From: Escherichia coli
GTDB taxonomy: Bacteria; Pseudomonadota; Gammaproteobacteria; Enterobacterales; Enterobacteriaceae
Reading direction: 5' to 3' (one strand)
Length of the DNA: 64,000 nucleotides
Assembly (NCBI RefSeq): GCF_001677475.2
Contig: NZ_CP015229.1
Part shown: piece after piece, positions 14,872-16,608 of the stretch
Layout: each line of letters opens with the position of its first letter
Position numbering within the stretch: position 1 is the stretch's first letter
The notes under the pieces: model-generated
The model's database searches: none
Told to the model about the DNA's origin: nothing
The model's input: only the letters and a program-made list of their open reading frames with translations
Translations under genes and position numbers: made by a program

Positions 14872-16608
14872 ATGCCGCGTGGCCTGGAATTACTGATTGC
14901 TCAAACCATTTTGCAAGGCTTCGACGCTCAGTATGGTCGATTCCTCGAAGTGACTTCCGGGGCGCAGCAGCGTTTCGAACAGGCCGACTGGCATGCTGTC
15001 CAGCAGGCGATGAAAAACCGTATCCATCTTTACGATCATCACGTTGGTCTGGTCGTGGAGCAACTGCGCTGCATTACTAACGGCCAAAGTACGGACGCGG
15101 CATTTTTACTGCGCGTTAAAGAGCATTACACGCGGCTGTTGCCGGATTACCCGCGCTTCGAGATTGCGGAGAGCTTTTTTAACTCCGTGTACTGTCGGTT
15201 ATTTGACCACCGCTCGCTTACTCCCGAGCGGCTTTTTATCTTTAGCTCCCAGCCAGAGCGCCGCTTTCGTACCATTCCCCGCCCGCTGGCGAAAGACTTT
15301 CACCCCGATCACGGCTGGGAATCTCTACTGATGCGCGTTATCAGCGACCTGCCGCTGCGTCTGCGCTGGCAGAATAAAAGCCGTGACATTCATTACATCG
15401 TTCGCCATCTGACGGAAATGCTGGGGACAGACAACCTCGCGGAAAGTCATTTACAGGTGGCGAACGAACTGTTTTACCGCAATAAAGCCGCCTGGCTGGT
15501 AGGCAAACTGATCACGCCTTTCGGCACATTGCCATTTTTGCTGCCGATCCACCAGACGGACGACGGCGAGTTATTTATTGATACCTGCCTGACGACGACA
15601 GCCGAAGCGAGCATTGTTTTTGGCTTTGCGCGTTCTTATTTTATGGTTTATGCACCGCTGCCCGCAGCGCTGGTCGAGTGGCTACGGGAAATTCTGCCAG
15701 GTAAAACCACCGCTGAATTGTATATGGCTATCGGCTGCCAGAAGCACGCCAAAACCGAAAGCTACCGCGAATATCTCGTTTATCTACAGGGCTGTAATGA
15801 GCAGTTCATTGAAGCGCCGGGTATTCGTGGAATGGTGATGTTGGTGTTTACGCTGCCGGGCTTTGATCGGGTATTCAAAGTCATCAAAGACAGGTTCGCG
15901 CCGCAGAAAGAGATGTCTGCCGCTCACGTTCGCGCCTGCTATCAACTGGTGAAAGAGCACGATCGCGTGGGCCGAATGGCGGACACCCAGGAGTTTGAAA
16001 ACTTTGTGCTGGAGAAGCGGCATATTTCCCCTGCATTAATGGCATTACTGCTCCAGGAAGCAGCGGAAAAAATCACCGATCTCGGCGAACAAATTGTGAT
16101 TCGCCATCTTTATATTGAGCGGCGGATGGTGCCGCTCAATATCTGGCTGGAACAAGTGGAAGGTCAGCAGTTGCGCGACGCCATTGAAGAATACGGTAAC
16201 GCTATTCGCCAGCTTGCCGCCGCTAACATTTTCCCGGGCGACATGCTGTTTAAAAACTTCGGTGTCACCCGTCACGGGCGTGTGGTGTTTTATGATTACG
16301 ATGAAATTTGCTACATGACGGAAGTGAATTTCCGCGACATCCCACCGCCGCGCTACCCGGAGGACGAACTTGCCAGTGAACCGTGGTACAGCGTCTCGCC
16401 GGGCGATGTTTTCCCGGAAGAGTTTCGCCACTGGCTATGTGCCGACCCGCGTATTGGTCCGCTGTTTGAAGAGATGCACGCCGACCTGTTCCGCGCCGAT
16501 TACTGGCGCGCACTACAAAACCGCATTCGTGAAGGGCATGTGGAAGATGTTTATGCATATCGGCGCAGGCAAAGATTTAGCGTACGGTATGGGGAGATGC
16601 TTTTTTGA
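14872..16608 (+). CDS. aceK: Isocitrate dehydrogenase kinase/phosphatase
   Basis: 578-aa ORF recognised as AceK; completes the aceBAK operon. Confidence 0.95.

Follow-up and report, generated by a model that had tools for sequence, protein, structure and literature searches.

A probable insertion seam at the 32-bp overlap of the aceK and arpA coding ends in Escherichia coli

The convergent genes aceK and arpA of Escherichia coli share their last 32 bp. Our analysis of this junction in a 64,000-nucleotide stretch of E. coli DNA (hereafter the window) suggests that the overlap is, in all probability, an insertion scar. Each gene reads through into DNA that belongs to the other and ends in a non-conserved tail, and the arrangement would be a by-product of horizontal gene insertion rather than a regulatory device. 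A low-GC segment of about 2.5 kb carrying arpA (espL4) would have landed between aceK and iclR in an ancestor of the arpA-positive E. coli lineages. Its left breakpoint, at AceK codon 573/574, would have removed the last two codons of aceK together with the stop. Translation of aceK would now run some 20 nt into the insert before its first in-frame stop, a TGA, and the arpA frame some 12 nt into aceK DNA before its own, a TAA; the two runs add up to the 32 bp observed. The evidence comprises a presence/absence polymorphism whose breakpoint is defined, outgroups that show the ancestral state, a contrast in GC content and the non-conserved, polymorphic nature of the tails. Insertion and loss of aceK's own end would have been a single event.

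Results

The overlap and its two genes

Two open reading frames of the window, one on the plus strand (14872-16608, 578 aa) and one on the minus strand (16577-18763, 728 aa), overlap by 32 bp at 16577-16608. The former is aceK, encoding isocitrate dehydrogenase kinase/phosphatase. Its product matches the Pfam families AceK_regulatory (PF20423, E 4e-111) and AceK_kinase (PF06315, E 3e-121), scores 942 bits against the NCBIfam equivalog NF002804 (cutoff 488) and is matched over its full length by PDB entries 3lc6/3eps; conservation of the core reaches to about residue 573 (...RRRQRFSVR, then Y or F). The gene stands third in the aceBAK order, downstream of aceA (aceB 11870-13489, aceA 13504-14823). 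The latter frame is arpA, or espL4, for an effector-like protein of the ShET2/EspL2 family with ankyrin repeats. Residues 121-379 correspond to Pfam Toxin_15 (ShET2, PF07906; 318.8 bits, cutoff 25), with ankyrin repeats C-terminal to this domain (Ank_2, 35.4 bits, cutoff 27.3), and RefSeq names the product either EspL4 or "ShET2/EspL2 family type III secretion system effector toxin". Judged by its domains, ArpA/EspL4 is a predicted member of a family resembling type III secretion system (T3SS) effectors, not of a metabolic regulator family. K-12 is not known to have a functional LEE-type T3SS.

The K-12 RefSeq annotation carries the identical 32-bp overlap (aceK 2573-4309 and espL4 4278-6464 on the K-12 locus that we retrieved), the corresponding coordinates in NC_000913.3 being 4218596-4220332 for aceK and 4220301-4222487 for arpA (PMC7656184). 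Genes, overlap and tails are thus the same in K-12 and in the window. The two differ in that the window comes from another strain, 96-98% identical over the region, and lacks the longer aceA-aceK spacer of K-12. This spacer measures 48 bp in the window (14824-14871) and in strain EC42405, 182 bp in K-12 (2391-2572 of its locus) and 215 bp in strain 536 (2358-2572 of its locus); the longer K-12 form contains REP elements, which have been linked to the differential expression of aceBAK. Over the 4.2 kb at 14872-19100 of the window, identity to the complete E. coli genomes in RefSeq does not exceed 98.0%; the window may therefore represent a lineage with few complete E. coli assemblies, for instance a Shigella or one of the cryptic Escherichia clades.

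Among 5425 complete E. coli genomes, the aceK-arpA region is present in 4083-4089 (about 75%). The overlap reported in the preliminary description is therefore borne out by the open reading frames of the window, by the K-12 RefSeq annotation and by thousands of complete genomes: it is real, ordinary and already part of the reference annotation. The same description had conceded that an earlier arpA stop, masked for instance by a sequencing error, would abolish it. The translations show no earlier in-frame stop in either the aceK or the arpA frame, and the population evidence speaks against an error.

A homology breakpoint inside the overlap

When the segment 16300-16900 was compared by megablast with 5426 complete E. 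coli genomes, 5425 matched and 4089 covered most of the query. About 1340 of the 5425 (some 25%) matched only up to query position ~287, that is, to about 16586 of the window, inside the overlap. Strain 536 lacks arpA; its aceK encodes 574 aa and the convergent iclR stop follows 16 bp on. Alignment of arpA-positive with arpA-less genomes shows homology running through TTTAGCGTnCGGT (window to 16588) and then breaking down, which places the homology break at 16586-16589. Past this point the arpA-less genomes continue with ..TTnGTATAA and a 15-16 bp spacer, and the arpA-positive ones with ATGGGGAGATGCTTTTTTGA... At the right junction homology resumes at (G)AAAAAGTCAGCG, just ahead of the iclR stop at 19080-19082. 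The coding sequence of iclR, the ancestral convergent neighbor of aceK, occupies 19080-19904 on the minus strand (274-aa form as given in RefSeq). A weak terminator-like hairpin in its last codons, followed by a T-run (19071-19102, minus strand), is kept at the right junction in arpA-positive and arpA-less genomes alike.

The segment so delimited, 16589-19072, measures about 2.48 kb, with boundaries good to ~3 bp, and by the ORF listing contains arpA and its upstream region only. Its GC content is ~32-41%, against ~51-57% in the flanking aceK and iclR, and the drop falls exactly over 16600-19070. A repeat search of 16400-19300 found no terminal direct or inverted repeats of at least 10 bp at the segment ends, and there is no integrase, tRNA or IS remnant of the kind expected in a classical mobile island. 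It thus shows the presence/absence polymorphism with defined junctions, the absence from outgroups and the atypical base composition of a genomic islet, without the hallmarks of mobility. We also noted a perfect 9-bp inverted repeat bracketing the insert, with one arm at 16580-16588 (GCGTACGGT) in the aceK end and the other at 19092-19100 (ACCGTACGC) in the iclR end; the left arm differs by one or two bases in arpA-less genomes. The repeat could be a coincidence or the trace of a recombination event.

The breakpoint divides the overlap into two parts of different origin. Positions 16577-16588 are ancestral aceK DNA, also found in arpA-less genomes, and encode on the minus strand the last three codons of ArpA (T V R) and its TAA stop. 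Positions 16589-16608 are inserted DNA and encode on the plus strand the AceK tail (Y)GEMLF with its TGA; the ancestral ending was FV*. Starting from arbitrary positions and frames, the chance run to the first stop has a median of 12 codons in the insert and of 19 codons on the antisense strand of aceK; the observed read-through runs are ~6 and ~3 codons, respectively. These lengths are chance-like, so no selection needs to be invoked, and the 32-bp overlap is no more than chance gives.

The ancestral aceK/iclR junction

AceK served as the query in a scan of one genome per GTDB species, and the 80 loci returned were searched with AceK, ArpA and IclR by tblastn. No arpA homologue was found at any of these 80 loci from other species of Enterobacterales. 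In Escherichia sp. MOD1-EC7003, E. whittamii and E. albertii, aceK ends in ...SVRFV* and is separated from iclR by a 15-16 bp gap, as in strain 536, and aceK is convergent with iclR in more distant genera too. Since the outgroups lack arpA and share the same end and gap, the arpA-less state appears to be ancestral and the arpA segment an insertion. No arpA-positive basal Escherichia with the same junction was found among the loci fetched, which cover E. fergusonii and the cryptic clades in part. Within E. coli, we take the absence of arpA to be specific to phylogroups B2 and F of the Clermont scheme. The insertion would be expected to have arisen once, with occasional later transfer by recombination of the kind suggested for some phylogroup D strains. 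As for the source of the segment, the nearest ArpA homologues outside E. coli in a HMMER search that returned 785 relatives are less than 40% identical.

Tight convergent ends are a feature of the locus itself. Both genes lie on the locus fetched in 78 species; in 13 of these aceK and iclR overlap (11 cases of 4 bp and 2 of 47 bp), and in 7 more the gap is at most 20 bp. ORF listings of three loci confirmed the distances. The ancestral ends being equally tight, the lack of an intergenic terminator is the norm at this locus and not specific to arpA. The ancestral junction of Enterobacterales therefore resembles that of aceK and arpA in having convergent ends that are as tight or overlapping, and differs from it in the partner: there it is iclR, the operon's own repressor, and here a foreign gene. 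Nine loci from other Enterobacterales have unrelated inserts of 0.4-4.8 kb between aceK and iclR, among them toxin-antitoxin-like small gene pairs, an acyltransferase-like pair and a LysR-type regulator. On account of these inserts, the interval appears to be a recurrent site of insertion.

Variable ends of AceK and ArpA

Beyond the motif ...RRRQRF(S/C)xR(Y/F), AceK is free to vary in sequence and in length, from 0 to ~60 residues across Enterobacterales; the solved AceK chain 4p69_A covers residues 4-571 only. Within E. coli, AceK ends in YGEMLF, YGEMLFE or YGEIFY. The last of these belongs to a divergent arpA allele (87% identity) in which the overlap is still 32 bp, AceK ending ...YGEIFY* and ArpA ...NKKSPHTVR*. 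The YGEMLFE form reflects a T6 homopolymer inside the overlap (16601-16606), in place of which several independent assemblies, a finished chromosome and one based on Illumina reads among them, have T5. With T5, AceK has 579 aa (...GEMLFE*), the ArpA tail runs 22 codons further into the antisense strand of aceK and the overlap grows to 99 bp; the frameshifted ArpA tail of some E. coli measures 30 aa. In one assembly of the T5 form (GCA_900449555.1, here L084), aceK is split into three called genes at 4540-6276 of the locus, probably as a result of homopolymer sequencing errors, and this case cautions against reading the T5/T6 state from single assemblies.

On the ArpA side, homologues from outside E. 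coli (at most 40% identity) align only to about residue 660, the last ~70 residues being lineage-specific. The original ArpA C-terminus could not be recovered from distant homologues, as the alignments of the non-E. coli members of the 785 HMMER relatives extend only about as far as that residue; a word-indexed search with ArpA returned E. coli alleles only. Alleles of arpA encode 734, 728, 598, 576, 545, 524 or 427 aa, many of them with in-frame losses of ankyrin modules. The gene is a pseudogene in strain EC42405 and is disrupted in E. coli B strains, including BL21(DE3) (PMC5435950). In the proteins compared, the tails of both AceK and ArpA lie outside the conserved cores and vary between strains, and the new tails would be functionally neutral.

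Transcription and termination around the overlap

The claim that convergent ends so arranged leave no room for an intergenic terminator, and that none is present, was upheld. A consensus scan of 16450-17500 found no terminator-like site on either strand, and RNA folds across the junction were no better than those of shuffled sequences (16560-16720, plus strand, z +1.75; 16440-16620, minus strand, z -0.74). An Rfam E-value search over 14000-20200 gave chance-level matches only. A hidden terminator at the junction was thus ruled out, and no bidirectional intrinsic terminator, with a GC-rich hairpin, an A-tract upstream and a U-tract downstream, was found either.

In K-12, Adams et al. (2021, PMC7815308) mapped the dominant Term-seq 3' end of the region to 4218963(+), 367 nt into aceK, where an intrinsic terminator gives rise to the 3' end of the AceK-int sRNA. 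This terminator is conserved in the window (15210-15239, plus strand), where a hairpin, CCGCTCGCTTACTCCCGAGCGG (15210-15231), is followed by a T-run, 340-368 nt into aceK. Likewise, the transcriptome of BL21(DE3) shows premature termination in aceK and AceB:AceA:AceK at ~0.3:1:0.003 (PMC5435950); it shows no arpA expression, but arpA is disrupted in that strain (PMC5435950). Further downstream, DirectRNA-seq of K-12 under bicyclomycin yielded a Rho termination region at 4220399(+), antisense to arpA (Rho score 3.0, p = 2e-8; PMC7815308). It lies 67 nt past the aceK stop at 4220332, equivalent to about 16675 of the window, and is reached there through an untranslated pyrimidine-rich stretch at 16609-16675 (plus strand). 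Plus-strand RNA thus crosses the overlap at a low level, the Rho call resting on low read counts. Part of that call could reflect spurious plus-strand transcripts that start inside H-NS-bound arpA and not read-through from aceK.

On the minus strand, the Term-seq tables hold no 3' end near arpA (PMC7815308), and arpA of K-12 figures as an "alien" promoter island bound by H-NS (PMC3661553). On the relation of H-NS to arpA, a 2025 EHEC preprint proved uninformative, as arpA is used there only for normalization. The proposal that the two transcripts must overlap accordingly holds for one strand: plus-strand RNA does pass the aceK stop into the arpA antisense strand, as seen from the K-12 Rho region, and the partner transcript from arpA has not been reported. 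Most likely, the few aceBAK transcripts that get past AceK-int continue across the overlap until Rho stops them, within some 70-100 nt inside the arpA antisense strand, arpA itself being probably silenced for the most part by H-NS.

Discussion

Two alternatives concern the history of the overlap. One would have it be an artefact, arpA truly ending earlier or one of the stops being a sequencing error. The T6 run is a typical site for such errors and L084, of the T5 form, has a fragmented aceK; against this, the T5 variant also occurs in an independent Illumina assembly and in a finished genome, with aceK intact in both, neither frame of the window has an earlier in-frame stop, and one and the same 32-bp overlap is common to the window, the K-12 RefSeq annotation and thousands of complete genomes. 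We dropped this explanation on the population evidence and regard it as scarcely credible. The other reverses the polarity: arpA would be ancestral at this site and would have been deleted in B2/F E. coli and in other Escherichia, making the overlap old and the arpA-less junction the scar. Losses of silent foreign genes are common, and the many internal deletions within arpA fit such a tendency. Nevertheless, E. coli 536, E. albertii, E. whittamii and Escherichia sp. MOD1 share an identical arpA-less junction (SVRFV*, 15-16 bp gap), and many other Enterobacterales have aceK and iclR adjacent in a collinear arrangement. Separate deletions would not rebuild one and the same sequence, and the low GC content of the segment suggests a foreign origin. 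An ancestral arpA is accordingly improbable, and insertion is the reading we prefer.

The remaining alternatives assign the arrangement a regulatory role. The preliminary description had raised antisense interference between the glyoxylate-shunt operon and arpA, whereby overlapping aceBAK and arpA transcripts would tune each other through RNA duplex formation or collision of polymerases. The lack of a terminator at the junction, the K-12 plus-strand RNA that reaches the Rho region in the arpA antisense strand, past the aceK stop, and an earlier proposal in the literature that arpA influences glyoxylate or acetate metabolism are in keeping with such a coupling. Yet ~25% of E. coli and all outgroups lack the overlap, which moreover varies in length, with 32-bp and 99-bp alleles; because of termination at AceK-int, the aceK 3' end is transcribed at a very low level; neither a transcript nor a 3' end of arpA has been reported; and arpA is H-NS-bound, often internally deleted or a pseudogene, and of a family that resembles T3SS effectors and not metabolic regulators. 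Nor does the overlap show the evolutionary conservation looked for in an excludon-like pair, since about a quarter of E. coli and all 80 other species are without it. Interference, conceivable in principle, is therefore unsupported, given how little the aceK 3' end is transcribed, the binding of H-NS to arpA and the lack of conservation, and we rate its chances as slight. Termination at AceK-int and probable H-NS silencing of arpA should together make sense/antisense pairing at the overlap rare, and it most likely is rare and without known consequence. One could also envision, with a shade less likelihood still, that the arpA insertion rewired the control of the glyoxylate shunt, the H-NS/Rho-silenced segment insulating aceBAK from iclR in phylogroups A, B1, C, D and E. 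If so, transcription of aceBAK in the arpA-less lineages (B2/F, E. albertii, many Enterobacterales) would run head-on into the gene for the operon's own repressor, and this arrangement, with its gap of at most 16 bp or overlap of 4-47 bp, could form a feedback loop based on transcriptional interference. As part of the same scenario, aceK read-through into the arpA antisense strand could help keep the foreign effector gene silent.

The aceK/arpA pair invites comparison with the convergent E. coli genes with overlapping 3' ends described by SEnd-seq and Term-seq, which end at bidirectional terminators or by Rho-dependent termination. Such pairs also lack an intergenic gap, and their transcripts run into the antisense strand of the neighbor, as that of aceK does. 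However, aceK/arpA has no bidirectional hairpin flanked by A- and U-tracts, termination of aceK transcripts is apparently Rho-dependent and arpA has no reported transcript.

A practical aspect of the insertion seam is its coincidence with a typing target. The "arpA" amplicon of the Clermont quadruplex PCR, a routine assay for E. coli phylotyping, spans 400 bp of the window (16198-16597), both primers matching perfectly: AceK.f at 16198-16217 on the plus strand and ArpA1.r at 16578-16597 on the minus strand. ArpA1.r sits on the seam, with its 3' 11 nt annealing to ancestral aceK and its 5' 9 nt to insert-specific sequence. The typing literature scores arpA as a present/absent marker (PMC7656184). 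The 2013 Clermont marker thus exploits the very polymorphism that creates the overlap; it is treated there as presence/absence only, and a description of the overlap as an insertion seam was not found in the typing literature examined. As the overlap and the arpA polymorphism were already known, the seam is a small corollary of known facts. Its biological importance is small, and the gain is one of clarification: the overlap is a physical seam at which both genes have chimeric, unconstrained 3' ends. ArpA1.r lies beside the T6/T5 run, and junction variants can consequently affect in-silico or PCR typing. By the same token, the last 32 bp need explicit attention when arpA is engineered or deleted, or else the C-terminus of AceK will change as well.

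A last observation concerns the body of arpA. The gene contains direct repeats with an exact period of 288 nt, or 96 codons (16974-16995, 17262-17283 and 17550-17571), which is consistent with tandem ankyrin-type modules. The common E. coli alleles of 524 and 545 aa have in-frame deletions of ~200 residues in this repeat region.
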